A stretch of DNA of 64,000 bases from Eubacteriales bacterium (GCA_045644325.1 JAZRGT010000099.1:11152-75151); one strand, 5' to 3'; shown: positions 36,682-60,966, counted from the stretch's first letter. The notes: generated by a model not told the origin, from the letters alone. Translations and numbers: made by a program.

Positions 36682-37659
36682 TCAGAAGCTTCTCTTCTTG
36701 GTGAAAGCTACTGCAAGAGACATTGCTGCGAGAGCAACTGCGATAACGGTGAAGATACCGTCGCCGGCGGAGGGAGCCTCGGGAACTACGGGGGTCTCTG
36801 CTACGGGAGTCTTGAGAGTTACTACGGGGCGTTCAGCTGCATCAATGGGAGCATTCGCCTTCTCTTCGGAACGGTAGCAAAGTCTTACGAGCTCGTTGTC
36901 CTTGGTGGAGGTGTAGGAGTAAACTACGGGAGCGCTGGTGAAGGTTCCTTCTTCGCCCTTAACACCGCTTGCGAATACCCAGTTCTCGCCATCCTTGGTC
37001 CAGGTGGAGAAAACAAGCGCGCTGTTGGAGCAGAATGCGGTACCGTTCTTGTTGGTATCGGTGAAGGTAACCTTGCTTCCTGCCTTGGGAACGACGATAA
37101 CGTCGGTGAAGGAGTAAGCAGAACCGCTTGCAACGATAGAACCGTCAGCCTTAACGTAACCGAAGTTCCAAACAACGTCGATCTTAGCGCCGTCTACGAA
37201 GATCTCCTCAAATTCGGGAGTCATATCAGCCTTCTGCTCGGAGCGGTAGGTAACGCGGATAGCCTGGTTATCCTCAGTGGTTACAAACTCATAGCTTCTG
37301 GAAGCTGCAACGCTGTAACCGGGAATATTGTTAGCTTCAAGATCAAGTTCAAACTCTTCGCCGTTCTTCTTCCAGAAGGAGAAGACGTAAGCTGCAGCGG
37401 ATGCGTAGCCGGATTTTTCGTCAGCGAAGGAGATGGTGGAGCCTGCAGGACCCATGTCTATAACGTCGGAGTAGGAATAGCTGCCGCCGTTGGGGTTGAG
37501 GACGTTGACGAATCCACTTGAGTTGGTGGAAGAACCAACGTAACCGAGCTGCCAGTTGGTAGCAACAATGGTTTCCTCATAGGATTCTGCGGAAGCTGTG
37601 AAAGCAGCTACGGAGAGAACCATTACGAGCGCAAGTGCGAGTGCAAAAATCTTTTTCAT
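36682..37659 (-). CDS. Secreted cell-surface protein with two tandem domains of about 125 aa and a C-terminal TM anchor
   Basis: Signal peptide ...FTASA-ES. Internal duplication (YSYSDVIDMGPAGSTISF / YSFTDVIVVPKAGSKVTF; IRVTYRSEQKA / VRLCYRSEEKA). Pro-rich linker, hydrophobic helix, KKRSF tail. Confidence 0.7.
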   Translation of the reverse strand: MKKIFALALALVMVLSVAAFTASAESYEETIVATNWQLGYVGSSTNSSGFVNVLNPNGGSYSYSDVIDMGPAGSTISFADEKSGYASAAAYVFSFWKKNGEEFELDLEANNIPGYSVAASRSYEFVTTEDNQAIRVTYRSEQKADMTPEFEEIFVDGAKIDVVWNFGYVKADGSIVASGSAYSFTDVIVVPKAGSKVTFTDTNKNGTAFCSNSALVFSTWTKDGENWVFASGVKGEEGTFTSAPVVYSYTSTKDNELVRLCYRSEEKANAPIDAAERPVVTLKTPVAETPVVPEAPSAGDGIFTVIAVALAAMSLAVAFTKKRSF

Positions 37660-37695
37660 TAGATAAAAATTCCTTTCTGAATTTTAGATAAGATA

Positions 37696-37724
37696 AATAT
37701 ACCACAAAATGAGGTGTTTGTCAA
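37696..37724 (-). promoter_or_regulatory. Sigma-A promoter of the surface-protein gene
   Basis: Minus strand reads TTGACA, 17-nt spacer, TGgTATATT. Confidence 0.7.
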
Positions 37725-37775
37725 GGTTTTTTCATAAATACTTTGGTTTAATTTCACAAAAGATCTCCAAAAATA

Positions 37776-38744
37776 TCAATTAAGCTTATCTATACTCTCA
37801 CCGATCAGCTCCGAGCCGTATAAATCGACCGCAAACGGATAGTATGCGGTATGATATTCCTTAAGTATCGCTATATCAGATCCTTCTATAAGACCGGCAT
37901 CAAATGCCTCTGTCAGGGTATACAAGCGGTTTCCGTCGAAGCCGTAGATACGGTTTCCGTTCTGATATACGAACACCTCTTCGCCGACTTCTTCATATTT
38001 AAGAGCATTGACGTAATATTTCAGCGGTGATTTATAGATAAAGAATACAACGTCGTCAAAAAGTCCGTAATAGTCGGTAATAACCACATCGTCAACCGTC
38101 GCTGTGTCGAGCTCCTTAAGAAGAAATTCGGTTACAACAGCTTGTTTAGCAAGCATTTCGGTCTCGGGGTCAAAGACCAATCTTTGAATATCGGGAACAG
38201 ACACGGTCACGTCTTTGAGTTCTTTATAAAATCTTGCGTAATAATAAGCTTCACACAAATGACCGTGCATTTCGCTGATATCCGAATAAGAAAGCTCGCC
38301 GCTTGAATACAGCTCGTTTGCGGAGAGTAATACGCCGTCTTTAAAACCGTAAACTCCCTCTGAGATAAAATTATGATTTGCAACGATCGCGGAATCAATT
38401 TGAGCCGTGGAACGGGTGTTATCAGTAAACATAATATATCCGTTATATGTTCCGAGATATTCCGCTCCGATCTGTCCCTTGCGATTGAAATTCTCAAGGA
38501 ATTCTACCAGAGGAATCCGACGGCGGGTCTTCTCTCGCCACGCCTTGTTCACTGCGTCTAAGAATTCCTGATTTATAATACTGTGATCGAGATTCGACCT
38601 CTGCATAGGAATTACAGTATCTTCCTTTTTCGTAGGCGCTGACACAAGTCCGCGATCATTCGACTTATATATGATTACTGCTACAGGGATAATAAGAAAG
38701 ACGAGTGCAAAAATTATAATATTCCTTATAAGATGTTCTTTCAT
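37776..38744 (-). CDS. Hypothetical N-terminally membrane-anchored extracytoplasmic protein
   Basis: Single TM helix (IIIFALVFLIIPVAVII) then a soluble domain of about 280 aa. Start set at 38744 (AGGAGA RBS) because a promoter occupies the track ORF start. Confidence 0.55.
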   Translation of the reverse strand: MKEHLIRNIIIFALVFLIIPVAVIIYKSNDRGLVSAPTKKEDTVIPMQRSNLDHSIINQEFLDAVNKAWREKTRRRIPLVEFLENFNRKGQIGAEYLGTYNGYIMFTDNTRSTAQIDSAIVANHNFISEGVYGFKDGVLLSANELYSSGELSYSDISEMHGHLCEAYYYARFYKELKDVTVSVPDIQRLVFDPETEMLAKQAVVTEFLLKELDTATVDDVVITDYYGLFDDVVFFIYKSPLKYYVNALKYEEVGEEVFVYQNGNRIYGFDGNRLYTLTEAFDAGLIEGSDIAILKEYHTAYYPFAVDLYGSELIGESIDKLN

Positions 38745-38787
38745 ATCGTATCTCCTTTCTTTAGACACGCCGAAATTATCTATACTA

Positions 38788-38816
38788 ATAATATCACATT
38801 TCCCTTCTCTTGTCAA
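38788..38816 (-). promoter_or_regulatory. Sigma-A promoter of the 37776-38744 gene
   Basis: Minus strand reads TTGACA, 17-nt spacer, TATTAT. Confidence 0.65.
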
Positions 38817-38819
38817 TAG

Positions 38820-38850
38820 AAAACAACACAGCGCTGGGCCGTGTTGTTTT
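38820..38850 (-). terminator. Terminator after the FAD oxidoreductase gene
   Basis: 10-bp stem AAAACAACAC/GTGTTGTTTT with an 11-nt loop. Confidence 0.6.
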
Positions 38851-38861
38851 CATTTATGAAA

Positions 38862-40706
38862 TTAATAAATTCTTACCTCATATACCTTGATCGCGGGGGC
38901 GCCGTTGGTTGCGAGGACGTGGATCTTAACCTCGTCTGCCTCGGTGGGATCTACGTCGCAGACTGCAAGGCGGAGATAGTTGCCGCGGACTTCCTTCTTG
39001 GAAACTTCCTTGCCGTCCTTATAAAGAACAACGTCGAAGTCCTTGAGAAGCTCGGGAGCAACGCCGATTCTCTGCTGAGACTGTCTGTTAGCGGACATAG
39101 TAACACGGATGGGGTATGCGAAGTTGGAGTCGGAGGTTACTCTTACCTGGCTTACGGTCTTTGCGCCGTCGAGCTTGAGGGTAAGGGTCTCGCCACCCTC
39201 GGAGATCGAATCGGTCATCCAAGCGTTATGCTCCTCGCCGATCTTTCTCGATACGCCGTTGATGACCTTCTCGGGCTCGCCGCCTGCGATGAAGGAAGAA
39301 GCCGAAACGGTTGCGGTGAGTGCCATATCCTTTGCGTCCTCATTCTTGTAAGGCAGGGGGAGATAGCCGTCTTCGCGGAGCATGATCTGCTGAAGCTCGG
39401 TGATGTGCTCGCCTACGCCGCGGGGATCGCAGCCGTACTTATCGCAGAGAGAAGCCGCAACGCCGACAGCCTGACCGCCGTTTGCACAGCAAGAGATAAT
39501 TCTTGTGGATGCAAGGCCGAGCTTGGTTGTGGAGATATTTCTTCCCGCCATAAAGAGGTTCTTGATGTTCTTGGAGTAGTAGCAACGGTAAGGAACGGTA
39601 TAGATACCCTCGAAGTGGTTGCAATCGGAGGGGAGAATATCGAAGTCAAGAAGTCCGTGGGGCGCGTGAAGGTCTACGCACCAACCTGCGTGGATAACAG
39701 CGTCATCGAATACTTTGTGATCGAGAATATCATTCTCGTTGAGCATATAGTCACCCATAAGTCTGCGGCTCTCGCGCATTCCGGGGAGTGCGCCTACCCA
39801 GATAAGCTCGAAGTTATCTGCGCCGTGCTCGCCGCCGTTCTTGATGTGATCCCAGAGACCGTATGCATAAGCGTAGAGATCGTCACGGATCTTTTCATAG
39901 TCCTCGATGATGTCCTCGCCGTCGCCCATAAGCTCGAGCCACCAGTAGCCGTAGTCAACTGCCGCGCAGGAGTTAGCGGAAAGGCGGAGCCATTCCTCGG
40001 GGTCGGGAGCCATGGAAGCATCAACCTTCATAGTCTTGGAGTGAACTCTGTAACGGAGCTGATGCTCGGTGAGGTGCTTTGCGAAAGGAGGAGGAGTGAA
40101 CTTAACGGGCTTGCCGGTGTCGACAGCCTTCATAAGGATGGTGTTACCCATTCTCTCGTTGTTAGCCTCTGCGGGAGCGTGGGGCTCGCCGGTTTCAGCC
40201 TTGGATTCGCTTCCCTGTCTGAACTCTGCGCCTGCGAAGTAGCCGAGGGTACCGTTACCGGTACAGTCAGCGAAGATGGGAGCGGTGATGCGGAGACGGA
40301 GCTCGGTAGTCTCCTGGAAGCACTTGATCGCTACGATGCGATCGTCCTCAACCTCGCAATCGTACATTGCGGTGTTGAAATATGTAGTAAGATTGGGCTC
40401 TTCCTTTGCCTTACGGAAAAGGACCATATCCCAAGTGGAATAGCTGAAGGAATCGTTTACAGCCTTGTTCTCAAGCATAAGCTCGTAAACAAGTCCGCTC
40501 TCTGCATAGTCGGGCTGACGAAGGCTCTGGTCAGCGCCTGAGATGTGGATACGGATCTCGCTGGATGCGTTGCCGCCGAGTACGGGACGGGCGTGGATGA
40601 GCGCAGTCTTAACACCCTCACGAGCCGCCGCGATAGCAGCACAAAGTCCGGACATACCTCCGCCGACAACAACAAAGGAATAATGTTCTTCTCTGAATCT
40701 CTTCAT
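38862..40706 (-). CDS. FAD-dependent oxidoreductase (FAD_oxidored-type) with C-terminal discoidin/F5-8-type-C-like domain
   Basis: N-terminal dinucleotide fold FVVVGGGMSGLCAAIAAAREG...GGNASSE. The C-terminal region of about 150 aa resembles a carbohydrate-binding beta-sandwich. Confidence 0.7.
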   Translation of the reverse strand: MKRFREEHYSFVVVGGGMSGLCAAIAAAREGVKTALIHARPVLGGNASSEIRIHISGADQSLRQPDYAESGLVYELMLENKAVNDSFSYSTWDMVLFRKAKEEPNLTTYFNTAMYDCEVEDDRIVAIKCFQETTELRLRITAPIFADCTGNGTLGYFAGAEFRQGSESKAETGEPHAPAEANNERMGNTILMKAVDTGKPVKFTPPPFAKHLTEHQLRYRVHSKTMKVDASMAPDPEEWLRLSANSCAAVDYGYWWLELMGDGEDIIEDYEKIRDDLYAYAYGLWDHIKNGGEHGADNFELIWVGALPGMRESRRLMGDYMLNENDILDHKVFDDAVIHAGWCVDLHAPHGLLDFDILPSDCNHFEGIYTVPYRCYYSKNIKNLFMAGRNISTTKLGLASTRIISCCANGGQAVGVAASLCDKYGCDPRGVGEHITELQQIMLREDGYLPLPYKNEDAKDMALTATVSASSFIAGGEPEKVINGVSRKIGEEHNAWMTDSISEGGETLTLKLDGAKTVSQVRVTSDSNFAYPIRVTMSANRQSQQRIGVAPELLKDFDVVLYKDGKEVSKKEVRGNYLRLAVCDVDPTEADEVKIHVLATNGAPAIKVYEVRIY

Positions 40707-40848
40707 TTAAATAATTTCCTCCGAAGATAATTTTTTCATACAGATTAATTATACTATATTTTATCAGAAAGGTCAATACCTATTTAGGGCTTGTACATCA
40801 ATTATCTGTAAATTTTCGTTTATTTATCGAAAAAAATCAGAAATTCTC

Positions 40849-40877
40849 TTGACATATTGAATAATTAGCTTTATAAT
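40849..40877 (+). promoter_or_regulatory. Consensus sigma-A promoter of mscL
   Basis: TTGACA, 17-nt spacer, TATAAT. It places the TSS near 40884, so the start codon is 40910. Confidence 0.75.
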
Positions 40878-40909
40878 ATTATATGATTAAAATAGCCGGA
40901 GGTTTTATT

Positions 40910-41443
40910 ATGGCAAAGAAAAAGAGCACCTTTGGTGCGGACTTCAAGAAATTCATTTCTCGCGGAAACGTAGTTGATATGGCAGTCGGCGTTGTTGTCG
41001 GCGGCGCGTTCAGCAAGATCGTAACCGGTTTTGTTAACTACGTCATCAATCCCTTCGTAGGCATCTTCCTCAAGAGCGGCAGCCTTGACTCGATCAAGAC
41101 CGTTATCACTCCCGAAGAGCTCAACGAGGCGGGGGAAGTTGTTACCGCAGAGGTTGCACTCCTTTGGGGTACTTGGCTCCAGACCATCATCGACTTCCTT
41201 ATCATCGCTTTCTGCATCTTCTGCGTTGTCAGAATGATCAACAAGATCAAGGATAAGGCAAACGAGAAGGAAGCTCTTGCAAAGGCTGAGGCTGATGCTG
41301 CCGCTAAGAAGGCTGCTGACGAGAAGGCAGCGGCTGACGCAGAGGCTGCAAAGGCAAAGGCTGAGGAAGAGGCTGCATTCCGCGCTTCCATTATGAAGCA
41401 GACCGAGCTTCTCGCTGAGATCAGCAAGTCTCTCAAGAAGTAA
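40910..41443 (+). CDS. mscL: Large-conductance mechanosensitive channel with extended A/E/K-rich C-terminus
   Basis: FKKFISRGNVVDMAVGVVVGGAF is the classic MscL N-terminus/TM1. GGAGG RBS. Confidence 0.9.
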   Translation: MAKKKSTFGADFKKFISRGNVVDMAVGVVVGGAFSKIVTGFVNYVINPFVGIFLKSGSLDSIKTVITPEELNEAGEVVTAEVALLWGTWLQTIIDFLIIAFCIFCVVRMINKIKDKANEKEALAKAEADAAAKKAADEKAAADAEAAKAKAEEEAAFRASIMKQTELLAEISKSLKK

Positions 41444-41499: not shown

Positions 41500-41949
41500 A
41501 TGAAAAACAAAACTCCATTTCGCGAGCGAGTATGGCAATTTATGCAAGGACGCAACGGCGTTGACGCGCTTTACAATTTTCAGATAATCGTTTGCTTCGT
41601 TCTTATAATCGTGAATTTCTTTCTCACGGGTATACCGAAGCTGATCATCAGCGTCATCTATCTCGCTATCATTTCCTGGGCATTTTTCAGATATTTGTCG
41701 AAAAATCTCTACAAAAGACGTAAAGAAAACGCAGATTTTCTTCGTTTTATAAAAAAATTTGCCGCATTTTTCCGCCTGCAGCGTGACCGTATACGCGACA
41801 GAAAAACTCACGTTTACCGCCGCTGTCCGAAATGCAAGAACGTTTTGCGCCTGCCCAAAAAGGCGGGAAAGCACAACGTCTGCTGTCCCTGCTGTTCTCA
41901 CAGATTCGGCGTTTATATTGCGGGATTTGCCCCAAAGGGCGATAAGTAA
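41500..41949 (+). CDS. Membrane protein with C-terminal zinc-ribbon
   Basis: Two TM helices then CPKC...CCPCC. GGAGG RBS 7 nt upstream of the ATG at 41500. Confidence 0.6.
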   Translation: MKNKTPFRERVWQFMQGRNGVDALYNFQIIVCFVLIIVNFFLTGIPKLIISVIYLAIISWAFFRYLSKNLYKRRKENADFLRFIKKFAAFFRLQRDRIRDRKTHVYRRCPKCKNVLRLPKKAGKHNVCCPCCSHRFGVYIAGFAPKGDK

Positions 41950-41987
41950 AAATAAAGCCAAGGATTTGAGTTCCTTGGCTTTATTTT
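41949..41987. terminator. Bidirectional terminator ending the decarboxylase-like operon
   Basis: Perfect 16-bp stem AAAATAAAGCCAAGGA/TCCTTGGCTTTATTTT with a 7-nt loop. Confidence 0.85.
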
Positions 41988-43045
41988 TATATTATATGAA
42001 TTCCTTTTTCGGGATGTGAGTGAAGCAGATCAAGGCAATAGCGCTTGGCGTTTCTGCGCTTGAAAAAGTCGATTGCGTCCCCTCCCCAAAGAGCGTATGT
42101 CAGTACATCCTCTTCCTGCTCCGACCAAGCGGCGATTTTATCTTCGATAAGCTCAAGTGAGGGCTCGATCATATCAGCGGGACGAACGAGAACAAGCGGC
42201 TCACCGCCGCAAATCGCGGAGATGAGATCTTGCGAGATCGGGCAAGGAGTTCTGCCGTATTTACCGAGGAGAAGATCCTTGAACCGGGGAGAGACCTCTG
42301 CGTAAGGCTCTTTGAAATGATTCATAACAGCTTGCTCAATAACGATATCACGAACAAAACCGAAAAGCGGAGGATGTCCAGCGTCCGGGCAGAGTTTTTC
42401 TATCTCATCCGCATATTCTGCGGGTATTGGATCGCTGATATCGTTTTCGTATAAATCCGCACCTGAATCAATCGCTATTTTCGAAATCACGGTAGACATA
42501 CCCGAAACGCCAAGCGGGAGATTTACTGCTTCTTTAATCGCTTTCACGGTGTCGCGGCAGGAAAAATCTTCCGACATTGAGAAGAGCCAGATTCCGTCGG
42601 CGCCGAGTGCTGAAAGCTGTGCGGCGTAGCCTGCAAAGAACGAGGGAGAATACGCCGGATTCTTTGAATAGACCATACCCGCATATACTTTCACTCCGCA
42701 TCTTTTGGCGGCGGTGATTGCCGTTTGCAGATTGCGCGGATCATTTAGCGGATCGTATATCCTGAACTCGGAAATTCCGTTTTCGACAGCTCGTGTTACG
42801 AACGCCTCGACAATATCGTCGGATAAAATCCTGTCGGAAACGAGGCATTGTCCCGCAATAGTCAGCGAAAGCGGAGTATTCGCCGTTTCTGCACGAATTG
42901 CGCGGAGCAGATCCCACGGATCGTAATCAAGCTCGGAAAAGCAAACGCGAGTCACATCGATGGCGACGTAATGATAACAGTCCAATTGCCCGAGTGTGTC
43001 AAGTTCTGCGTAGCCGAGCGTGGTATATTCATTGAAAGCATCCAT
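41987..43045 (-). CDS. OadA / transcarboxylase-5S-like TIM-barrel protein lacking the catalytic metal-ligand motifs (probable pseudoenzyme)
   Basis: DPWDLLRAIRAETANTPLSLTIAGQC, ENGISEFRIYDPLNDPRN and the C-terminal LVRPADMIEP...EDVLTYALW align to the OadA/PYC_OADA pattern. The RDxHQS, KDM and HxHxH motifs are absent or replaced. Confidence 0.65.
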   Translation of the reverse strand: MDAFNEYTTLGYAELDTLGQLDCYHYVAIDVTRVCFSELDYDPWDLLRAIRAETANTPLSLTIAGQCLVSDRILSDDIVEAFVTRAVENGISEFRIYDPLNDPRNLQTAITAAKRCGVKVYAGMVYSKNPAYSPSFFAGYAAQLSALGADGIWLFSMSEDFSCRDTVKAIKEAVNLPLGVSGMSTVISKIAIDSGADLYENDISDPIPAEYADEIEKLCPDAGHPPLFGFVRDIVIEQAVMNHFKEPYAEVSPRFKDLLLGKYGRTPCPISQDLISAICGGEPLVLVRPADMIEPSLELIEDKIAAWSEQEEDVLTYALWGGDAIDFFKRRNAKRYCLDLLHSHPEKGIHII

Positions 43046-43048
43046 AAC

Positions 43049-43177
43049 TTATTTTTCTTCTGCTTTCTCTTCCTTTTTCTCGGAGGCTTCGCCTTCTTTT
43101 GCGGACTCTTCCTCTTTGATCTCTTCAATTTCAACGACGTATTCCTTGCCGTTTACCTTCACTTTGAATTTTCTCAT
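43049..43177 (-). CDS. 42-aa small protein resembling the N-terminal module of decarboxylase biotin-carrier/small subunits (no biotinyl domain)
   Basis: Not in the ORF track (under 60 aa). MRKFKVKVNGKEYVVEIEEIKEEESAKEGEASEKKEEKAEEK. GAGGTG RBS overlaps the upstream stop; its own stop is 3 nt before the next ATG. Confidence 0.55.
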   Translation of the reverse strand: MRKFKVKVNGKEYVVEIEEIKEEESAKEGEASEKKEEKAEEK

Positions 43178-43185
43178 TTTACACC

Positions 43186-43488
43186 TCAGCCTATGCGGCG
43201 GTTATTTGTTCTTTTGAATGATACTACGCGGAAAGCGGGGACTTCTTCTCTGCCCTCGGCTTTCGCTTCTTCCTCTAAAATAATTGCGATTGCGGCTGTG
43301 ACAGCGGCGACTTCCTCGGAATCATCCTCTTCGGGAATCACAGCTTGCTGTTCGGCAATTTGCTTTCTTTCGATCCATTTACGCAGATATGCAAGACCGA
43401 TATAAAGAGCCGCGACGACTATAACGCCGATGATCACGAAAAGCATGGAGCCGTTCTGTGTGGGCTCGGAATTAAGTAAAAAGTTCAT
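43186..43488 (-). CDS. OadG-family (decarboxylase gamma/delta-type) single-pass membrane subunit
   Basis: N-terminal TM helix, then EEVAAVTAAIAIILEEE, typical of OadG/MmdD. Start set at the ATG at 43488 (AGAGG RBS, 5 nt after the upstream stop). Confidence 0.65.
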   Translation of the reverse strand: MNFLLNSEPTQNGSMLFVIIGVIVVAALYIGLAYLRKWIERKQIAEQQAVIPEEDDSEEVAAVTAAIAIILEEEAKAEGREEVPAFRVVSFKRTNNRRIG

Positions 43489-43492
43489 CGAC

Positions 43493-44953
43493 TTACCTCT
43501 TTTTGCGCACGGGAGTCGCATTCTTTTTGCCGAGGAGCATATGGAGTGCAGCGATCACGCGGGGGCGGAGCTCGGAGGGAGTCAGGATATCGTCGATTTC
43601 ACCGCAGAGAGCGGCATCATTGGGCGAAGCGAGCTTTTCGCGCCATTCGATCTCAAGCATCTCGCGGCTTGCGGTCAGATCGTTCTGCCTGATGCGTTCG
43701 CTCCAGACGAAGGCAACCGATGCTTCGGGCGAAAGCGCGCTGATGCAGGAGTCGGTCAGCGCGAACGCGATATCCGCGCCGAGAGATTTCGACGCCATAT
43801 AGACGAATCCAACGCCGTAGGCTCTGCCGATGACGGAGGTTATCTTCGGATTCGATGAGAACGCAAATGCATCCGTCATAGCCGCAGCACTTTCGAGGTA
43901 GAAGGCATTTTCCGTGACGGAATTGTCAAATCCGGGGCAATCGACGAAGGAGAGCAGCGGCAGACCGAATGAGTCTGCAAATTTCTGTATTTTTGTTATA
44001 ACGCGGCAAGCGCCGGGAGTGAGTGCGCCATCCTTATGCGCGCGCTCCGATGCCATAAAAGCGCATCCGACACCGCCTACGGAGGCAAAACCAACGGCAA
44101 TTTCGGGTGCGTATTCGGCAAACAGACGGATATAATTCTTTTTATCCGATATTTCCGCAACGAGTGCTTCACCGCAGAGTAATCGGAGGTCGGGGGCGCG
44201 TTGAAGTTCAAACTCGGGAATATCGAAGTCAACGGCAGTTCCCTCGGTATTATTAGAAGGTAGAAAACCTATCAGATTTCGCGCAAAGCGGTAAAGCTCG
44301 GCTTCATCCTCGGCTTCGTAAGCAGAAATACCCTCGGGTGCGGGGAATGTTTTCGTTCCGTTTACAAAGGGAGATACGGCGTAGATCTCTGACGATTCCT
44401 TTACGGAAACAATGAAATCAAACGATGATGCGAATACAGCATGAGTGCCGCCGCAGACGCCGGGAACGAGTGCGATACGCGGAACGATACCGACGGCGGA
44501 GCTGTTTGCCGCGGCGGTCCTTCCGAGTGCGGCGAGCATTTTTGCGCCCTCGTAGATATACGCGCCGTCACTGTCGAAGATCCCGACGATGGGAGCACCG
44601 TTGCGCAGAGCCATTGAGTAAAGGTCGCAGATCAGTTTGCCCGATGTCGAATCGAAGGCTCCGTTCATTCGTGCACGGTCTTGAGCGAAGGCGTATACAA
44701 GTCTTCCGCCTACAGCACCGTAGCCGCAGATAACGCCCGCGGGCTCGTCGGGATCGGAGGAGCGGTTCATATACGCACCGATGCGCGAGAAGGTGCCGTG
44801 ATCGAAAAGCGCGGTCAGTCGTGCCGCAGCAGTAAACTCGCCCGTGCTTTCAACAGCCGCAGAAACGTCGATCTCGCGAAGCATTTCGGTCAGCTTTTCC
44901 GCCGTCATCGCGCGGCGCAGGCTTTTATTTTTTTCTTTAGAGTTGTTATCCAT
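43493..44953 (-). CDS. Acyl-CoA carboxyltransferase (AccD/PccB/MmdA/GcdA family), divergent
   Basis: Two carboxyl-transferase halves: GYGAVGGRLVYAFAQD...NGAPIVGIFDSDGA...VPGVCGGT and GALTPGACRVITKIQKFADSFGLPLLSFVDCPGF. Confidence 0.75.
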   Translation of the reverse strand: MDNNSKEKNKSLRRAMTAEKLTEMLREIDVSAAVESTGEFTAAARLTALFDHGTFSRIGAYMNRSSDPDEPAGVICGYGAVGGRLVYAFAQDRARMNGAFDSTSGKLICDLYSMALRNGAPIVGIFDSDGAYIYEGAKMLAALGRTAAANSSAVGIVPRIALVPGVCGGTHAVFASSFDFIVSVKESSEIYAVSPFVNGTKTFPAPEGISAYEAEDEAELYRFARNLIGFLPSNNTEGTAVDFDIPEFELQRAPDLRLLCGEALVAEISDKKNYIRLFAEYAPEIAVGFASVGGVGCAFMASERAHKDGALTPGACRVITKIQKFADSFGLPLLSFVDCPGFDNSVTENAFYLESAAAMTDAFAFSSNPKITSVIGRAYGVGFVYMASKSLGADIAFALTDSCISALSPEASVAFVWSERIRQNDLTASREMLEIEWREKLASPNDAALCGEIDDILTPSELRPRVIAALHMLLGKKNATPVRKKR

Positions 44954-44984
44954 AGATATATCTCCAAATTCTGATATTCATTTA

Positions 44985-45013
44985 ATTATACCATAAATTC
45001 CTCTTTTTTACAA
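44985..45013 (-). promoter_or_regulatory. Sigma-A promoter of the decarboxylase-like operon
   Basis: Minus strand reads TTGTAA, 17-nt spacer, TGgTATAAT. Confidence 0.7.
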
Positions 45014-45032: not shown

Positions 45033-45061
45033 TTGAAAAGGCGCAAGAAATGTGGTATAAT
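45033..45061 (+). promoter_or_regulatory. Consensus sigma-A promoter of the membrane-tethered XRE gene
   Basis: TTGAAA, 17-nt spacer, TATAAT. Leaves a leader of about 130 nt. Confidence 0.7.
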
Positions 45062-45194: not shown

Positions 45195-46496
45195 ATGGAA
45201 AAGAAAACAATAGGCAAGTTCATATCCGTTTTGCGCAAGGCAAACGGTATGACACAAAAGGATCTCGCTGACAGACTTTTCGTTTCTGATAAGACCGTCA
45301 GCCGCTGGGAGCGCGACGAGTGCGACCCCGATCTTTCACTTATCCCCGCGATTGCTGAGCTATTCGGGATCACAACGGATGAACTGCTCCGAGGTGAGCG
45401 GAATTCACCCGCCTCTGCCGAATATCAAAATGAAGACGAGATCATCAAGCAAAAGAAAAAGACCGAAAAGCAATTTAAAGCTATGCTCTTCGGCAAGAAG
45501 CGTAAATTCGAGAATCTCACTCTTATTTCTGTCGGAATATCGCTACTCGGTCTGATCGTCGGAATGATAATCAACCTCGGCTTCTCGAAGGGACTCATCG
45601 CATTCTTTACCACCTCTGCATTTCTGCTCGGCGGCACGATCTGTCAGATCTGCTTTACGTCCAACGCGAAAATCGCCGTAAACGATGACGACGATTACCG
45701 CGAGCTTACCGAGGCGGCAAACACAGCGTTTTTACAAAAATCTATCGCAGTATATTTTGTAAATATCGCGATCTTCGCGTTCTGTCTGCCGCTTGTCACG
45801 CTCATAAACGGCGCAAATTTCGGTCTTAAATTCGGATCGTGGCTTTTGTACGGAATTGCATTCGCTGTCGGCGGGAGCATTCTTGCATATATGATCTACC
45901 GCTTTATTATCAAGCCTGCGCTGATTAGTCGGAATATTCTCATTTTTAATGAAATGGGACTTGCGCGCGAAAAATATACGCGAAAGCTTCTGATTCGACT
46001 TTCGTCGGTCAGCTTGGTTATCGCAATTCTTCTCGGTATTGCAATAACGGTTGTCAACAGTTTCGGTACAGCAGAATTTGCAGACAAAGTAATTCTTGAA
46101 ACTCCCGAAGAGTTCAAGGAATACATGGAATCAAGCTATGACGAAGCGAAAAATATATCGGGCGATTGGTACTATGACGAAAATGGAAACCTCATAGGCT
46201 CTGCAGTCATCGTCGACGAAGATAATCCCGATCCTTTCAAGGTTTATGACAATCTTCTTGATAAGAACGGAAACGTACTCTGCGAATACTATTACCACTC
46301 CAACCTGTATTCGCGTATCGAGTATAATATAGAGTCCGAAAATCGTTGTCCGATAACGGTCTACACACAAGAGGCGATGAGAGAAGCGGGAGTTTTGATA
46401 TCAGAAATCAAATCTATGCTTGGTATCGCTATCTTTGCAGAGGTGTCACTATTCGTAGGGATTTACATTATCAAGGTAGCAAGGAAAAAAGATTAA
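45195..46496 (+). CDS. Membrane-tethered XRE-family HTH protein (HTH, about 6 TM helices, C-terminal extracytoplasmic domain)
   Basis: KFISVLRKANGMTQKDLADRLFVSDKTVSRWERDE HTH_3 signature, multiple hydrophobic helices, GGAGG RBS. Confidence 0.8.
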   Translation: MEKKTIGKFISVLRKANGMTQKDLADRLFVSDKTVSRWERDECDPDLSLIPAIAELFGITTDELLRGERNSPASAEYQNEDEIIKQKKKTEKQFKAMLFGKKRKFENLTLISVGISLLGLIVGMIINLGFSKGLIAFFTTSAFLLGGTICQICFTSNAKIAVNDDDDYRELTEAANTAFLQKSIAVYFVNIAIFAFCLPLVTLINGANFGLKFGSWLLYGIAFAVGGSILAYMIYRFIIKPALISRNILIFNEMGLAREKYTRKLLIRLSSVSLVIAILLGIAITVVNSFGTAEFADKVILETPEEFKEYMESSYDEAKNISGDWYYDENGNLIGSAVIVDEDNPDPFKVYDNLLDKNGNVLCEYYYHSNLYSRIEYNIESENRCPITVYTQEAMREAGVLISEIKSMLGIAIFAEVSLFVGIYIIKVARKKD

Positions 46497-48949: not shown

Positions 48950-50341
48950 TTACTCAAACATCATATTTTCTACGAACAGATCGGTGAAATATTTGTTCGC
49001 TGACAGATCGACGTAATTTATCATTTTTATCAAGCCGTCGAGATCGTTTCCCTCGATAGCAAACTTTACCGTTCCCTGCAGACTGCTGTTATTCAGCGCA
49101 ACGGTTTTGCCCGCGAGCTCGCGCGGGAGGAGTCCGCTGTTTACGGCATTCTGTATATTGATCTTACTTGAAAATCCGCCCGAGATATACATATGGGAAA
49201 TATCATCGAAATCAACGCCCTCGGTCTTCATCAGCGAGAGTATCGCCGAGCAGACTGCGGATTTGGCAAGCTGATACTGTCTTACGTCATCGGTGGCGAG
49301 GTAGACTCCGTCGGCGATTTCATAATCGTCGTCCATATAGCCCGTTTCGTCAATTATTTCGTTGCGAAGGAGCTCGGTGATTATGTCGATCAGACCTGTA
49401 CCGCAGATGCCGACGGCTTTTTCGTCTGCAATCGTCTGATAGGTTGCGTTGCCGTAATCAAGACGGAAGGAATAGATCGCGCCCTTCGTTGCGCTCATTC
49501 CGCAGCTGATGTTCGCGCCCTCAAAGCAAGGTCCTGCTGCTGCGGCGGTGGCAACTCCCGACTTATTAGAGAACAATACTACCTCCGCATTAGTTCCGAG
49601 GTCGACGAGGAGATCGTACTTCCCTTCCTCGGGCGTTCCGACAAGTCCAAGGCCTGCGACGATATCCGCGCCGACGAATGATGCCACGGACGGGAGCGAG
49701 ATTACAGTTTTTACGCCGCGAAGACCGATCGACTCTGCCTGCTCCGTTTTACTTTCAAGAAATACGGGAGTGTACGGTGCGACGCCGATGGATGACGGAT
49801 CGATGCCGAATAGCGTGTGAAGCATAGTGACGTTTGCGGAAACGTACATATTATCAACGCATCCGACGTCAAATTCCGCGATCATTCGGTTGATTTCATT
49901 CACGAGAACCGATTGAAGCTCTTTTACCGAGTTCTTTTGGCAATAGTCAATACGCGTAATAACGTCCGCGCCGTAAGCTCTTTGAGGATTTGTTGCAGTT
50001 GCGACCTTTACGGTCTTTTTCTCATCGAGCGAAACAAGGGCGAGGGCGAGGGTGGTAGTTCCAATATCGAGAGCGAAGCAGAGCTTGCCCGAAGCCGAAC
50101 CGCTTGCGCTGATGCCGGTTTCTGAAATTATCGCGCTCTTTTCATAGGTTTCAACCTCAATGTCGGACTCGACAATATATCTGCACGCGAGCTTTTCTTC
50201 GCCGCAGACCTTGACCTTGCATTTGCCGCAGGTGCCTCTGCCGCCGCAGGGCTTTTCAATATCGAGTAAATCCGAGAGGACCGTACCTGCGGGCGCAAGT
50301 ACGGTCTTTCCGTTTATTGTAACTTTAAACTGCTTATTCAT
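48950..50341 (-). CDS. Corrinoid reductive activase (RACo/RamA-like: 2Fe-2S ferredoxin domain + ASKHA/DUF4445 ATPase)
   Basis: N-terminal CGGRGTCGKCKV...C cluster motif. ASKHA motifs DIGTTT, DLGTNAE, GICGTG. Confidence 0.75.
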   Translation of the reverse strand: MNKQFKVTINGKTVLAPAGTVLSDLLDIEKPCGGRGTCGKCKVKVCGEEKLACRYIVESDIEVETYEKSAIISETGISASGSASGKLCFALDIGTTTLALALVSLDEKKTVKVATATNPQRAYGADVITRIDYCQKNSVKELQSVLVNEINRMIAEFDVGCVDNMYVSANVTMLHTLFGIDPSSIGVAPYTPVFLESKTEQAESIGLRGVKTVISLPSVASFVGADIVAGLGLVGTPEEGKYDLLVDLGTNAEVVLFSNKSGVATAAAAGPCFEGANISCGMSATKGAIYSFRLDYGNATYQTIADEKAVGICGTGLIDIITELLRNEIIDETGYMDDDYEIADGVYLATDDVRQYQLAKSAVCSAILSLMKTEGVDFDDISHMYISGGFSSKINIQNAVNSGLLPRELAGKTVALNNSSLQGTVKFAIEGNDLDGLIKMINYVDLSANKYFTDLFVENMMFE

Positions 50342-50342
50342 T

Positions 50343-50918
50343 TTATTCTCCGTCGGGCGTGAACAGTACCGCGCCGAAATAGGTGACGGTATTCTGACCG
50401 TTGATGTACTTCATACCGGCAGACTTCGCAAGCTCGTTGACGTTGACACAGTATGCCTCAAGCGACGCCATAGCGAGCTCGGGGAAACGGCAGGGCTCAC
50501 CCGTGCGCTTGGCACAGACCTTGCAAACGCCGCATGCTCCGACACCGAGATGAAGAGCGTTATTAATCCCCATCTCGCCAAAAGCAGAGCGGAGATTTTG
50601 CGATAACGGACGGAAGTTCTGCTTCGCCTCCGTCATTCCTTCGATATCAAAGCTGTCTTCAAGCTGTGATACTGTCTGATAAACCAGAGCGTATTTATAA
50701 TTCTTCAACTGCGCTGTAAGGGCTTCGACATCGCCTACGTCGGGCGGGCACATATAGCACTTTCCGCACATTCCGCATCCGTTTGAGAGGCAGATGTCAC
50801 GAAATACGCGATCGGTCTTTATCTCGCTTGCGCGAATAACGCTTGCTTTGTTGGCGCCAAGCTCAAGCGCCTTATCAATAATAATCTTATCTTCCATAAT
50901 ATTCATTACTTGCCGCAA
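50343..50918 (-). CDS. DUF2284-like Cys-rich metal-binding protein
   Basis: CGMCGKCYMCPP and GACGVCKVCAKRTGEPCRFP motifs. Start may be a downstream Met, since it overlaps the upstream gene by 32 nt. Confidence 0.6.
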   Translation of the reverse strand: MRQVMNIMEDKIIIDKALELGANKASVIRASEIKTDRVFRDICLSNGCGMCGKCYMCPPDVGDVEALTAQLKNYKYALVYQTVSQLEDSFDIEGMTEAKQNFRPLSQNLRSAFGEMGINNALHLGVGACGVCKVCAKRTGEPCRFPELAMASLEAYCVNVNELAKSAGMKYINGQNTVTYFGAVLFTPDGE

Positions 50919-51900
50919 AGAATGCGTCGATGTTCTCCCACGGAGTCATGGGAGGTACGTCACAGCCGGTTGAGAGGACGAAATTCGGGTACTTCGAGCA
51001 CTTCTCGAGAAGCGCGAGTGTTTCCAAGCGCACCTTTTCGGGAGTGCCGAGACGAAGTGTTCCCGCGGGATCTATATTGCCCATTACTACTGTATCGGCG
51101 GGGATATTCGGAATGATATCCTTCTCCATATCCACCGAGTTGCCGAAATGGTAAGCGGCACAGCCCGTGGTCAGGATCGAATCGAGCATCTTGGGTACGT
51201 TATCGCCGCAGTTATGGTAAATGACCGCAAAGTCGTCAGTCTGCACCGCGTCTACGATCTTTTTGACGTATGGCGATCCGAATTCTTCCTCGAGAGTCGG
51301 GGAGAGCAGACCCGCTACGGGCTCTGCCATAACGATTCCGTTTGCGCCCGCAGCCTTGTATGCCTTGGCGTATTCGCAAAGGAATTCGGTGACCTTTTCA
51401 AGCACCGTGTGCACCATATCGGGATCATCGTAGCAATCCATCATTATTTCGGTCACGTCAAGAAGACGCGCCGCGAGGGAGAAAGGACCGATCATACCCG
51501 CGAGCACGGGGCGGTCGGTTATCTCCGCAGATGCATTTTTGATGGCGTCAAGATATATCTGCGTTCTGCCGCTTCCGACAGCAGGAACAGCGAGAGCTTC
51601 TGCTTCATCCATATCATTGACTATTCTGCCTTTGACGGTGGGAACCTCTTCGTCGGAAACCACGATATTGGCGCCGAAGCATTCAGCCTCGAGGGAAAGA
51701 TCCATAAAGCTGACAGATGCGGCGGAGGGAGTTCTGTCGGCTACAGCCTTCATTCCCCTTGCCTGAAGCTCGCTCGAGGAGATCAAATCGCGGACGGTGA
51801 CGCTGAGGAGGCTAACGCAGGGAAAGGAAAGTATCGGAATCGGATTCTTCGCGCCGATGCCTTTAAGCGACGCAATCCATTCTTTCATATTGTAATTCAT
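50887..51900 (-). CDS. URO-D-family methylcobamide methyltransferase (MtaA/MtbA-like, MT2-type)
   Basis: 337 aa with H-x-C (YHNCGD) plus a downstream Cys (STGCDVPP), consistent with the His-x-Cys-Xn-Cys zinc motif of MT2 enzymes. Confidence 0.7.
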   Translation of the reverse strand: MNYNMKEWIASLKGIGAKNPIPILSFPCVSLLSVTVRDLISSSELQARGMKAVADRTPSAASVSFMDLSLEAECFGANIVVSDEEVPTVKGRIVNDMDEAEALAVPAVGSGRTQIYLDAIKNASAEITDRPVLAGMIGPFSLAARLLDVTEIMMDCYDDPDMVHTVLEKVTEFLCEYAKAYKAAGANGIVMAEPVAGLLSPTLEEEFGSPYVKKIVDAVQTDDFAVIYHNCGDNVPKMLDSILTTGCAAYHFGNSVDMEKDIIPNIPADTVVMGNIDPAGTLRLGTPEKVRLETLALLEKCSKYPNFVLSTGCDVPPMTPWENIDAFFAASNEYYGR

Positions 51901-51917
51901 ATCGAAATCCTCTGAAA

Positions 51918-53039
51918 TTAAATTCGGATATTCTTGATCTCTTCAGCGTAATACTGAACAAGCTCAAATTTTGAGCCGGGCAACAGACGGTGATCGGGAC
52001 AGGGGATGAATCCTCCCATATCAAACAGACGTTTGATACGTTCAATCTCAACGTCGACAGCCTGCTTATCCTTGCGGAACGCGGTCTTATCCATACCGCC
52101 GACTCCGAGTATCTCTTTGCCATACTTCTTACGCGCGGGCTCGAACTGATCGCCCCAAGTACCGATCTCGATTGGGAACAAGACGTTTACGCCCGTTTCA
52201 AGCCAAGTGGGGATCAGCTTTTCGGTGACTCCGTCGCAGTCGAGGGAGATGATGTCGATGCCGTGCTTATGTAAAAGATCATTACGCTTTTTATAGTGCT
52301 TGCGGCAGAGCTCGTCAAAAAGTTCGGGGGAAAGGAGCGGTCCGCTCTTGTAGCAGATATCCTCCCAATAATGACCGAAATCAAACTGCGCTCCCGTAGC
52401 AAGTGCCGCCTCGACGCACTTATACTGCATCTCGGCATAGGTATCAACTATGTCTGCGAAGAGTTCCTCGTCCTCATCATAGATGAGATAGCTCATACCC
52501 ATTACGGTGGTTATATCTCTTATATGTCCCATAACGCTGCCGACGTGGATTCCTATCGGAATATCGGTCGCGCGTGTTTCGTTAAATTTCTTTAAAGCCT
52601 CGGTGTTGACTCTTTCGGGTGAGTATTGCATTTTCGGTTTGAAAAGAGTTTCAAAAGCCTCACGGTCCTTGAGAAGATAATCATCTTCAGAAGGAATAGA
52701 TACCACGCCAGGCTTGATGCGCTCAATAACACCGTTAGAAGTCAAGACTCTCTGCGTACCGTCGGGAAGATTTTCGAGCACTTCACGCTTGAAACGTGGA
52801 AACAGGTGGTTATTTGTACCTACCGTGTTGTACCAATTACAATCCCAACCGATGATCTTATCAAGTTCACGTTGCTCGGGAGAGTTATCACGGACGGCTG
52901 CTTTTGCTATTTCGGCAGTGATATGTCCCTGACAAGCCCACTCGTCAAGAAGCTCTCTCCAATAGCCGAAATGAACGGCGGGGATGCGGTCGGTATCCTT
53001 ATAATGCAGGATATTCATACAACGTTCGCGTGTTGTCAT
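51918..53039 (-). CDS. URO-D-family protein (candidate substrate:corrinoid methyltransferase)
   Basis: URO-D-like C-terminal pattern GGFIPCPDHRLLP; 373 aa; no HxC motif seen. Confidence 0.6.
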   Translation of the reverse strand: MTTRERCMNILHYKDTDRIPAVHFGYWRELLDEWACQGHITAEIAKAAVRDNSPEQRELDKIIGWDCNWYNTVGTNNHLFPRFKREVLENLPDGTQRVLTSNGVIERIKPGVVSIPSEDDYLLKDREAFETLFKPKMQYSPERVNTEALKKFNETRATDIPIGIHVGSVMGHIRDITTVMGMSYLIYDEDEELFADIVDTYAEMQYKCVEAALATGAQFDFGHYWEDICYKSGPLLSPELFDELCRKHYKKRNDLLHKHGIDIISLDCDGVTEKLIPTWLETGVNVLFPIEIGTWGDQFEPARKKYGKEILGVGGMDKTAFRKDKQAVDVEIERIKRLFDMGGFIPCPDHRLLPGSKFELVQYYAEEIKNIRI

Positions 53040-53052
53040 ATTGTTATCCCTT

Positions 53053-54282
53053 TCAAATGCTATCGTAATATTTATCGAGCACGTCGCTGACCGTTTGTGC
53101 CCAGACTATCAGATTTTCGGGTCTGCAGGAAACCGTGCTGATATCCTTGAGCACATAGTCATAAGCACAACCGTGTTTAATGCAAGCCTTGACGGTCTCC
53201 TCTACCTCGCGTCTTATGACATCGGGATCGGTGCTGATCGCGACGTGCGCGGGATTCGGTTTCCTTGACAAAACGTAATCTCCGCCGATCTGTTCGGCGC
53301 ATTTTTCAACGTTTGCCCAAGGCGAGCAGCCGATTTTGCGCAGATTGGGTATCTTTTTGAGCACGCCGATTTTATCGTCAAGCGGTTCGCAGCAGCCGTA
53401 GTATGTATAGGTAAACCTTTCTGCAACGGAAAGCAGATAGTTGATTTCGAATTCCTCGAACATTGCGGGCGAGATGACACCAAAGGTCTGCGCCATACTG
53501 CGGCACCACGTTGCCTTCAAGCCTTCACTAGCCAAGCCGGATACATCTCCAGGGGTGCAATGAAGCGACGGTGTCGGGCAGACGTCGAGATGCTTTTCCA
53601 CGAAATCAAGCTCTGCGTGAGCTGCGGAAACGTATCTTTTAATTATCTCGTGAAGGTATTCGGGGCGGTCGTACATATCCATCAGAATCGGCTCAACGCC
53701 GCGCAGACGCGTGATCTTATCCCACGGCGCAAAATAAAAGTAGTCATAGCCATAAAGCTTGACAGGGATCACATCGCCAAGCAGATCGGTATAAAACTCC
53801 ATTCTTGCGGCGTCCTTGTCGGGGCGGAGAGTAAGAACGGGATTGTGTAGCTTTTGGATGGCGGATTCGTCCTCAAGGACATCCTCAAATTCGCGGGAAA
53901 CGATATTGTTGATTGCATCGGTACGCTTTAAACCGACCGTTACGGGATTAAGTCCTATGCCGGTTGAATCAACAGCACGCTTCAGGCGAAATACGGGTTC
54001 ATAAAGATTATCTGCCTTGAAATGCTCGATATAGTAGATGGCTTTTCTGAAATAAAGCTCGGCATTTCGCGCATCCTTGTCCTCACATACGCAGGTAAGC
54101 TCGCCGCCCGAGTTCATCTGATACCACGGGATCTCATCGAGAATGACCGGAGGCCTTCCCTGCTTCAGATCATTGGTATCTCTGAAACGGCGAACCATTT
54201 TTTCCTGCTTTTCGCTGCAGACCAGCTCCATATATCGCTTTGCAAGCTCTCTTACTATCGCTTTATCTTGAGCAGTCATCAC
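53053..54282 (-). CDS. Divergent URO-D-like family protein (candidate methyltransferase)
   Basis: 409 aa, TYYGCCEPLD...KIGCSPWAN Cys-containing barrel end, GGAAGG RBS. Family assignment is by context and weak motif similarity. Confidence 0.5.
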   Translation of the reverse strand: MMTAQDKAIVRELAKRYMELVCSEKQEKMVRRFRDTNDLKQGRPPVILDEIPWYQMNSGGELTCVCEDKDARNAELYFRKAIYYIEHFKADNLYEPVFRLKRAVDSTGIGLNPVTVGLKRTDAINNIVSREFEDVLEDESAIQKLHNPVLTLRPDKDAARMEFYTDLLGDVIPVKLYGYDYFYFAPWDKITRLRGVEPILMDMYDRPEYLHEIIKRYVSAAHAELDFVEKHLDVCPTPSLHCTPGDVSGLASEGLKATWCRSMAQTFGVISPAMFEEFEINYLLSVAERFTYTYYGCCEPLDDKIGVLKKIPNLRKIGCSPWANVEKCAEQIGGDYVLSRKPNPAHVAISTDPDVIRREVEETVKACIKHGCAYDYVLKDISTVSCRPENLIVWAQTVSDVLDKYYDSI

Positions 54283-54315
54283 AAATACCTTCCGAATACG
54301 GAATAGCGAATATTA

Positions 54316-54948
54316 TTATTTGCAGAATTCGACAGCCGCGTCTGCTGCGCTTGCAGCGTCAACGGTATAGATGTCGGCGCCGATCTTCTTGCAGTACTCA
54401 TCGCTTACGGGAGCACCGCCGATCATGATCTTGACCTTATCGCGGATACCTGCCTCCTCAGCCTTCTTCACGACCTCTTCCATAACGCTCATAGTTGTGG
54501 TGAGAAGCGCGGAACAGCAGATGACCTGACAGTTCTGCTCGATAGCGGTCTGAACGAAGGTTTCGGGAGAAACGTCGGTGCCGAGGTCAACTACCTCAAG
54601 GCCCTTGCCCTCCATCATCATCTTAACGAGGTTCTTGCCGATATCGTGAAGATCGCCCTGAACGGTGCCGATGCAGACCTTACCCGTTGCCTTGACGCCC
54701 TCTGCGGCAAGAAGGGGCTTGATGATCTGAACGCCCATATTCATCGCGCGTGCAGCAACGAGAACCTCAGGAACGTAGATCTCATTATTCTTGAACTTTT
54801 CGCCTACGATATTCATACCTGCAAGCAGACCTTCGTTAAGAATCTGCTCGGGATTGATTCCCTGCTCTACTGCCTGAGTGACAAGCTCCTTGACGATTTT
54901 TGCTTTACCCTTTTGAAGATTTTCGCAAATTTCAACTAAAATGCTCAT
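54316..54948 (-). CDS. Corrinoid (B12-binding) protein, MtaC/MtbC-like
   Basis: B12-binding DxHxxG motif (GDLHDIGKN), N-terminal helical cap, Rossmann-like MIGGAP end; 210 aa. Confidence 0.9.
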   Translation of the reverse strand: MSILVEICENLQKGKAKIVKELVTQAVEQGINPEQILNEGLLAGMNIVGEKFKNNEIYVPEVLVAARAMNMGVQIIKPLLAAEGVKATGKVCIGTVQGDLHDIGKNLVKMMMEGKGLEVVDLGTDVSPETFVQTAIEQNCQVICCSALLTTTMSVMEEVVKKAEEAGIRDKVKIMIGGAPVSDEYCKKIGADIYTVDAASAADAAVEFCK

Positions 54949-59711: not shown

Positions 59712-59726
59712 TGATCAGCACTCTCC

Positions 59727-60944: not shown

Positions 60945-60966
60945 TTTTATACCGCTCCTTTCTTAA

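Follow-up and report, generated by a model that had tools for sequence, protein, structure and literature searches.

What becomes of a biotin-dependent decarboxylase when its operon has neither a biotin carrier domain nor a pump subunit? The question is raised by four minus-strand genes (45013 to 41947) in a stretch of DNA from an Eubacteriales bacterium (GCA_045644325.1 JAZRGT010000099.1:11152-75151), whose full 64,000 nucleotides (nt) we call the window. A preliminary account made without database searches, here termed the sequence-only reading, had recognized in these genes a carboxyltransferase (CT), an OadG-like anchor, a 42-aa peptide and an OadA/5S-like protein. As to its evolutionary and structural identity, the operon is, with high probability, a reduced descendant of a five-gene CT-OadG-BCCP-OadB-OadA pump operon (BCCP, biotin carboxyl carrier protein). 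In the course of reduction oadB was lost, the carrier was cut to an anchor of ~20 residues with a charged tail, and the OadA-type barrel was deprived of every catalytic residue.

Organization and products of the operon

The operon comprises the following features, in order of transcription.

44985..45013, minus strand: promoter, sigma-70/SigA-type (TTGTAA, 17-nt spacer, TATAAT, extended -10 TG; 10/12 matches)
43493..44953, minus strand: carboxyltransferase of the 12S/PccB/MmdA type, 486 aa (Pfam PF01039, E=2.9e-60)
43186..43488, minus strand: OadG/MmdD-type membrane anchor, 100 aa (hidden Markov model (HMM) of complete-operon OadG, E=4.6e-13)
43049..43177, minus strand: putative biotin-carrier stub, 42 aa (NCBIfam NF005117, E=2.3e-6)
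41987..43045, minus strand: predicted 5S/OadA/PycB-like pseudoenzyme, 352 aa (Pfam PYC_OADA, 2.7e-13)
41947..41989, minus strand: intrinsic terminator hairpin (18-bp stem, 7-nt loop, -23.1 kcal/mol, z=-8.72)

The genes are as closely packed behind a near-consensus promoter as the sequence-only reading had it, with successive stop-to-start gaps of 4, 8 and 3 nt. The stop codon of the 5S-like gene marks the start of the closing hairpin, and none of 200 shuffled sequences folded equally well. It is flanked by an A-tract and a T-tract and is thus probably bidirectional, in keeping with the strong bidirectional terminator described before.

The reported lack of a biotin carrier domain and a pump subunit was confirmed. 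In no frame does the window contain a biotinylation motif of the E[AS]MKM type ([AVS]MK[ML]) whose context is plausible, and its large open reading frames (ORFs) have no Pfam match to Biotin_lipoyl (PF00364), OAD_beta (PF03977) or biotin carboxylase domains. The profile searches that had been proposed for the four products returned Carboxyl_trans and PYC_OADA, and neither Biotin_lipoyl nor OAD_beta. A sequencing or assembly artefact, in which a frameshift or deletion masks a normal carrier and pump, has a negligible probability: a ~1.2-kb oadB gene would find no space in gaps of just 3-8 nt, and the recurrence of equal gene boundaries and sizes in independent assemblies from cattle, goat, yak, sheep and human excludes it. 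The architecture had been called undescribed, and consistent with this we found no description of it in the searchable literature.

The first product belongs, as predicted, to the AccD/PccB/MmdA family. Besides its Carboxyl_trans match, it is ~30% identical to solved structures of the PccB/12S/MmdA type (PDB search, E~1e-54). On the NCBIfam mmdA model (cutoff 999 bits) it scores 240 bits, much like the 228 bits of the CT at locus L025, where the operon is complete; the whole CT clade is therefore divergent, and the model assigns it no substrate. The GG oxyanion motif (PGVCGG) is retained, and, judged by sequence, no subunit other than the CT still looks catalytic.

Homologues place the start of the second product at its second ATG. 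Its N-terminus forms a single hydrophobic helix; the C-terminal helix reads AAVTAAIAIILEEEA, and there is also a strand, FRVVSFKRTN. The likeness to OadG noted by the sequence-only reading is weak against Pfam PF04277 (OAD_gamma; E=0.032, below cutoff), and became firm with an HMM built solely from complete-operon OadG proteins, four of five of which are positive for Pfam OAD_gamma: the product matches the C-terminal half of that model (positions 65-116).

The 42-aa peptide had been taken as the third member of an alpha-delta-epsilon series, an assignment that did not survive. It consists of an N-terminal anchor, MRKFKVKVNGKEYVVEIEEIK, and a Lys/Glu-rich tail, with no biotinyl domain, and it matches the N-termini of carriers: positions 2-29 of the NCBIfam BCCP model NF005117, positions 1-28 of the MmdC gamma model NF047903 (E=0.0027) and positions 1-34 of a complete-operon carrier HMM (E=1e-6 among 22,174 ORFs). 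It was through these MmdC and BCCP matches, and not through an MmdE sequence, that its identification as the MmdE epsilon subunit was rejected. The peptide has no Pfam match, and neither it nor the 100-aa product had a match in sequence searches of the PDB. The L025 carrier starts MRKFSVKVNGKTYEVEIEEI and the window peptide MRKFKVKVNGKEYVVEIEEI. Within RED1, the group of reduced operons that includes the window (see below), the peptide starts MRKFKVKVNGKEY[EV]VEIEEIK, and apart from the E/V at position 14 these first 21 residues are identical in the window and nine of the 10 other members. We conclude from such comparisons that the peptide is the putative N-terminal anchor stub of a biotin carrier, its biotinyl domain gone.

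Earlier work gives a structural meaning to what has been conserved. The N-terminal ~30 aa of GcdC anchor the carrier to the complex, and the C-terminus of OadG binds a ~30-aa peptide of OadA (PMC7145394). In the reduced operon the pieces still conserved are the very ones to which the literature gives a role in assembly, namely the N-terminus of the carrier and the C-terminus of OadG. At one RED1 locus, L039 (11467-12814), there is no stub ORF, and the 98-aa OadG-like protein is without the AAITAAI..ILEEEA helix, while an FRPVVFVRTN strand remains; the loss of stub and helix together in this single metagenome-assembled genome (MAG) suggests that the two are in mutual contact.

For the fourth product, the homology and fold implied by the label OadA/5S-like stood. 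A phmmer search of the PDB found PycB (1.7e-42), OadA (6e-38) and 5S (7e-36); in Pfam only PYC_OADA matched, with no HMGL-like match at E<=1. An AlphaFold model (predicted local distance difference test score (pLDDT) 90.6, predicted template-modelling score (pTM) 0.89) shows eight beta/alpha units and a C-terminal helical domain, and Foldseek gave template-modelling scores of 0.82-0.87 to 5ks8, 2nx9 and 1rqb. The predicted fold is thus that of the OadA/5S/PycB family, and the curated thresholds of the family are not reached: on the NCBIfam oadA equivalog (cutoff 718) the protein scores 210 bits and complete-operon OadA 774.

What the sequence-only reading missed is that the catalytic residues have all been lost. 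Aligned to its canonical relatives, the protein is without the N-terminal TETVLRDxHQS strand, and with it the Asp ligand and both substrate residues, Arg and Gln; FSM stands in place of KDM, removing the carbamylated Lys; the His-x-His of HTHYT has disappeared through a 5-residue deletion; the Arg of RGQ is Ala; and a segment of 60-95 aa (~90 aa in this alignment), including YQVPGGMLSN, is missing. The C-terminal tail KYxLDxxHxxxxxGIHxx is conserved and has low pLDDT in the monomer model. Alignment and model agree in identifying this protein as a predicted pseudoenzyme that keeps the OadA/5S fold and has lost all metal ligands. A new active site in the dead barrel was considered and set aside: only three derived columns (M->L, I->L, S->V) are shared by RED1 and RED2, the second group of reduced operons, and none is suggestive.

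Descent from complete pump operons

A CT scan with one genome per species found 252 relatives, and the best 80 were annotated with local HMMs. All 80 loci, each from a different assembly, come from MAGs of uncultured gut or rumen Clostridia, Eubacteriales or Oscillospiraceae. The operon types among them are as follows.

RED1 (10 genomes and the window): CT, OadG, stub of 42-50 aa, barrel of 350-368 aa
RED2 (6 genomes, including human-gut MAGs): longer stub, barrel of 396-436 aa
Complete (~60 of the best 80 of 252): EAMKM carrier, OadB, and OadA with all catalytic motifs
L093 (1 genome; 11354-13540): CT-OadG-BCCP(EAMKM)-OadA intact, OadB alone missing
L092 (1 genome; 11386-13558): OadB missing; carrier full-length and with EAMEI, the biotinyl Lys replaced by Glu; OadA full-length, its ligands mutated (RD->RG, HQS->QES, KDM->QDT, HTH->STH)

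The reduced form is therefore present in 17 species-level genomes (RED1 with the window, and RED2), to which L092 adds an earlier stage. Among the MAGs that carry a reduced operon are GCA_045636385.1, GCA_017411805.1, GCA_965350785.1, JAFOEU01 (RGIG402) and MGYG-HGUT-00371 of the UHGG. Recurrence of the four-gene synteny in related genomes, which had been proposed as a test, is thus positive; distant genomes, whose flanks differ, have the same gene order. The ±10 kb around each of the 17 reduced loci contains no gene for a BCCP, a biotin carboxylase or OadB.

For both the CT and the 5S-like protein, the nearest canonical relatives sit in CT-OadG-BCCP(EAMKM)-OadB-OadA operons, with an OadB of 390-430 aa and an OadA of 465-480 aa that carries RDxHQS, KDM and HxH. 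Such complete operons (for example L025, L007/L027, L014 and L015/L032) have CTs 55-65% identical to that of the window, and they share with the window operon the OadG motifs, the carrier N-terminus and the OadA C-terminal tail ...HADPxxGIHxV. The 5S-like protein has homologues in two short families, of ~350 aa (40-100% identity) and ~408 aa (35%), followed by the canonical proteins of 465-480 aa. It is this five-gene order in close relatives, and not the mmdADECB order on which the sequence-only reading had modelled the operon, that appears to be ancestral. The five-gene operon combines an MmdA-like CT and an OadA-like CT with one carrier and one pump, and may work either as a pump with two substrates or as a transcarboxylase linked to a pump. 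Within complete operons (L025-L095), OadA is 71-92% identical, far above the 47-73% of the CT.

The RED2 operon lies at a DeoC-SpoIID-topoIV flank, which is the chromosomal position of the complete operon in L015/L032; the shared position indicates that RED2 was converted in place from a complete operon. The number of such reductions was judged from a neighbour-joining tree of 81 CTs (428 columns, 200 bootstraps). Both RED1 and RED2 are monophyletic (184/200 and 200/200, respectively), RED1 is sister to the complete L025 (149/200) and nested among the complete L026-L032 (121/200), and a clade of RED1 with RED2 was never recovered (0/200). L092 and L093 fall in two other clades of complete operons. 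By this topology biotin was lost at least three times (RED1, RED2 and L092), and the reduced form probably arose several times independently.

Selection on the reduced operon

A rival possibility is that the operon is simply decaying, a set of remnants on the way to pseudogenes after loss of the pump. The loci can be arranged as a graded erosion, from L093 (loss of the pump alone) through L092, RED2 and RED1 to L039, where the stub is lost too. The 5S-like protein also evolves 3-10 times faster than canonical OadA; its ratio of nonsynonymous to synonymous substitution rates (dN/dS) is 0.18 between the window and locus L013, compared with 0.015-0.052 for canonical OadA. Of 228 conserved OadA columns, L092 keeps 165, RED2 70 and RED1 57, while control clades keep 92-98%.

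Against decay, the dN/dS values of the whole operon are low (0.05-0.18). In the same comparison of the window with L013, the CT gives 0.055, the OadG-like protein 0.095 and the stub 0.18 (its anchor segment, 0-0.11 in other RED1 pairs), and 12 neighbouring genes give 0.03-0.28. Given the substitutions observed, neutrality predicts ~94 nonsense hits for the RED1 barrel gene, ~82 for the RED2 barrel and ~20 for the OadG gene; none was seen. The ORFs are intact, by stop-to-stop length, in all 17 species-level genomes, the promoter, ribosome-binding sites, 3-8 nt spacing and terminator are preserved, and the same end state was probably reached independently. Low dN/dS and the absence of nonsense hits indicate that the operon is kept by selection, as the earlier argument against simple decay had supposed. 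By these measures it is maintained by purifying selection, with the barrel relaxed and apparently still needed. Decay now seems very improbable. The sequence-only reading had offered a repurposed complex, one that borrows its BCCP in trans and a decaying operon; the last is rejected, and the first two are weighed below.

The CT is under constraint equal to that in complete operons. Its dN/dS spans 0.049-0.09 across reduced operons, compared with 0.036-0.088 across complete ones. In the CTs of complete operons 71 columns have >=95% conservation; RED1 retains 66 of them, RED2 69 and L092 69. Retention in these three biotin-less lineages equals or exceeds that in control complete clades. The CT is thus probably the working enzyme.

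A further proposal, that the operon evolves faster at synonymous sites than its flanks, was rejected: the background is a mosaic (dS 0.04-1.55) in which the operon is ordinary. Between the window and L013, dS is 0.04-0.32 in a block of ORF325, ORF346, an FAD oxidoreductase and MscL (36682-41443) and 0.4-1.55 elsewhere, the operon included, which suggests recent recombination or exchange of the block. The flanking GlnA, FAD oxidoreductase and MscL are 88-99% identical across RED1 species where found.

Possible functions of the reduced complex

Two known systems resemble the operon, and it lacks what either requires. With the Na+ decarboxylases for oxaloacetate, methylmalonyl-CoA and glutaconyl-CoA (OAD, MMD and GCD) it shares the CT, a single-helix anchor of the OadG/MmdD/GcdD kind, the N-terminus of the MmdC/GcdC carrier and an OadA-type barrel. 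The complete operon of its relatives also has the gene order of such a system, from which the window operon is clearly derived. A CT and an anchor are thus present; a biotinyl domain and an OAD_beta subunit were found neither in the window nor within ±10 kb of the related loci, and the OadA-type protein is without metal ligands. The Propionibacterium transcarboxylase likewise combines a 12S-type CT, a 5S-type barrel and a small protein without a pump. The N-terminus of its 1.3S subunit, MKLKVTVNGTAYDV..., which glues 12S and 5S together, has the same starting motif as the stub. That enzyme, however, depends on a biotinylated 1.3S and on a Co2+/Zn2+ site in 5S and has no OadG-type anchor, whereas the window operon encodes an anchor, no biotinylated 1.3S-type carrier, and a barrel devoid of the metal site and of the pyruvate-binding Arg and Gln. 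With biotin and the 5S metal site gone, methylmalonyl-CoA:pyruvate carboxyl transfer is impossible. It is L093, which lost the pump and kept biotin, that resembles a membrane-anchored analogue of transcarboxylase.

Lacking both swinging arm and pump, the predicted complex alone could neither shuttle CO2 nor move Na+. A precedent for a CT fold that works without either is MdcD-MdcE, whose subunits are carboxyltransferase homologues that decarboxylate without biotin and accept malonyl-CoA in vitro; Mad (MadC/D-MadB-MadF) is the biotin- and Na+-dependent counterpart of Mdc (PMC5534430). The likeness to this thioester decarboxylation is one of function and not of family membership. On the NCBIfam malonate_beta model (cutoff 278) the window CT scores 24 bits (E~1e-5, N-domain only), and Pfam found no ACP (MdcC), MdcA or other mdc genes in the window. 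Mdc is moreover soluble and keeps no dead partner subunits, in contrast to the complex predicted here, which would be membrane-tethered with dead partners.

We propose that the four products assemble into a membrane-tethered complex in which the CT would be the only enzyme. The dead barrel, the stub and the OadG C-terminus would have been kept because the CT oligomer needs them for assembly, stability or membrane placement. The CT may decarboxylate a short acyl-CoA, of the methylmalonyl- or malonyl-CoA type, without a tethered carrier; the enolate could be protonated directly, as in MdcD-MdcE, or free biotin could act as a transient acceptor. We hold this carrier-free decarboxylation by a CT with three assembly partners only tentatively, at somewhat less than an even chance. 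The wider proposal, that gut Clostridia converted a Na+ pump into a biotin-free, membrane-tethered acyl-CoA decarboxylase with three fossil assembly partners at least three times, is possible and in our judgement rather doubtful.

Several observations weigh against carrier-free decarboxylation. The mechanism of the CT is one that we infer, and the independent origins rest on a single-protein distance tree made by neighbour joining. Conserved CT sites show no remodelling after biotin loss across the 80 loci. We had considered such remodelling in the form of Ala->Pro/Val/Met at residue 381, the position equivalent to the biotin oxyanion hole of PccB (window CT numbering), and Phe->Tyr at residue 87, both in the two reduced lineages, and dropped it when the same residues appeared in complete EAMKM operons (L025, L026, L028, L029, L031, L065 and others among the 80). 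An unremodelled CT is equally compatible with use of biotin from elsewhere. The transmembrane anchor has been kept in every reduced lineage though the pump is gone. A gene resembling a biotin-protein ligase is conserved, so that some biotinylated protein may exist in the cell. Finally, the search covered 64 kb of this genome and ±10 kb at the related loci, and a scan based on the CT would miss a BCCP-OadB locus that has no CT.

These points lead to a split system, in which the CT would still depend on biotin, presented in trans by a carrier that may come with a pump or a biotin carboxylase. Candidates for that carrier are AccB/AccC, a separate oadGAB-type locus and pyruvate carboxylase, and the stub, anchor and barrel would serve assembly only. 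The retained CT columns and a CT dN/dS that is unchanged after loss of the cis carrier fit such a system, as does the retention in all reduced lineages of the transmembrane helix of OadG, whose partner in complete complexes is OadB. Separation of this kind is familiar: E. coli acetyl-CoA carboxylase works with an untethered BCCP, and in Acidaminococcus gcdA is unlinked from gcdDCB. On the other side, the window and the ±10 kb around the reduced loci are devoid of BCCP, biotin carboxylase and OadB, and the 17 reduced genomes have no second locus of the CT clade among the best 80 of 252 matches. RED2 replaced a complete operon in situ, the stub presumably fills the docking site of the carrier, and the same rescue would have been needed three times. 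A split system is therefore rather unlikely, and it is not placed lower because a CT-less BCCP-OadB locus would escape the scan.

The ligase-like gene bears on a split system in both directions. It lies at window 24317-25039 on the minus strand and encodes 240 aa (TIGR00121 birA_ligase, 73.5 bits against a cutoff of 83.1). Its conservation in close relatives favours a carrier in trans: the protein forms a tight clade at 60-96% identity, the next relatives being at <=44%. Against this, its biotin loop is altered, reading GKGQGTHTF instead of GRGRxGRxF/W, and no BPL_C is recognisable; the catalytic Lys of IKWVND is retained. One member of the clade probably shares a contig (40,015 bp, NCBI) with a RED1 operon. 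The gene could be tied to the loss of biotin dependence or be unrelated to it.

A complex without any catalysis, all four products having structural, sensing or regulatory roles, for example as a membrane-tethered acyl-CoA-binding scaffold, would account for the three non-catalytic products, for the anchor kept without a pump, and for an mmdA score so far below its cutoff that no substrate is assigned. It is hard to reconcile with the enzyme-like constraint on the CT (dN/dS ~0.05; 93-97% of conserved columns kept, including PGVCGG): a scaffold would be expected to relax like the 5S-like protein, which keeps 25-31% of its conserved columns. We regard it as improbable, and carrier-free decarboxylation by the CT is the function that we favour.

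Other parts of the window belong to the setting of the operon. A second near-consensus promoter (45033-45061, plus strand; TTGAAA-17-TATAAT with TG, 11/12) diverges from that of the operon. Behind it, at 45195-46496 (plus strand), lies a gene whose 433-aa product has an HTH_3 domain at its N-terminus and several hydrophobic stretches. Eight of the 10 other RED1 genomes have a homologue (39-84% identity) as the divergent neighbour of the CT; the protein may or may not regulate the operon. Farther away, a corrinoid methyltransferase cluster (48950-54948, minus strand) encodes a RACo-type activase, DUF2284, two URO-D/MtaA-like proteins, a B12-binding protein and a 409-aa ORF without a Pfam match, and it points to methyl-group metabolism (methanol, methylamine or methoxy) in this organism. 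At 22753-24218 and 58023-61776 (both minus strand) are the dipicolinate synthase genes dpaA and dpaB, which suggest a spore-forming lineage, and a type IV pilus/type II secretion system (T2SS) set (T2SSE ATPase, T2SSF and prepilin peptidase A24).

Two features stand out: the same reduced state was apparently reached repeatedly and independently, and dead subunits have been retained over the long term. The reduction may reflect adaptation to scarce biotin, in parallel with the altered biotin-ligase-like gene in the same genomes. Labels such as "methylmalonyl-CoA decarboxylase alpha" and "oxaloacetate decarboxylase/pyruvate carboxyltransferase" carry a risk for annotation: from genes so mislabelled, Na+-pumping decarboxylation or transcarboxylation would be wrongly inferred for abundant Oscillospiraceae-like MAGs of the human gut and rumen. 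If the CT is independent of biotin, carboxyl transfer would have turned into plain decarboxylation by a second route in addition to Mdc.

Dead subunits kept under purifying selection in independent lineages also provide a clear natural case of a bacterial metabolic complex that retains pseudoenzymes. The full assembly of biotin-dependent decarboxylase pumps, a classic bioenergetic system, is still poorly resolved, and the reduced operon would mark an assembly core, made up of the CT, the OadG tail, ~20 carrier residues and an inert 5S-type barrel, that offers a simpler structural target. If this reading is true, these gut Clostridia would possess a minimal assembly core, arrived at in nature, for the decarboxylase family as a whole.

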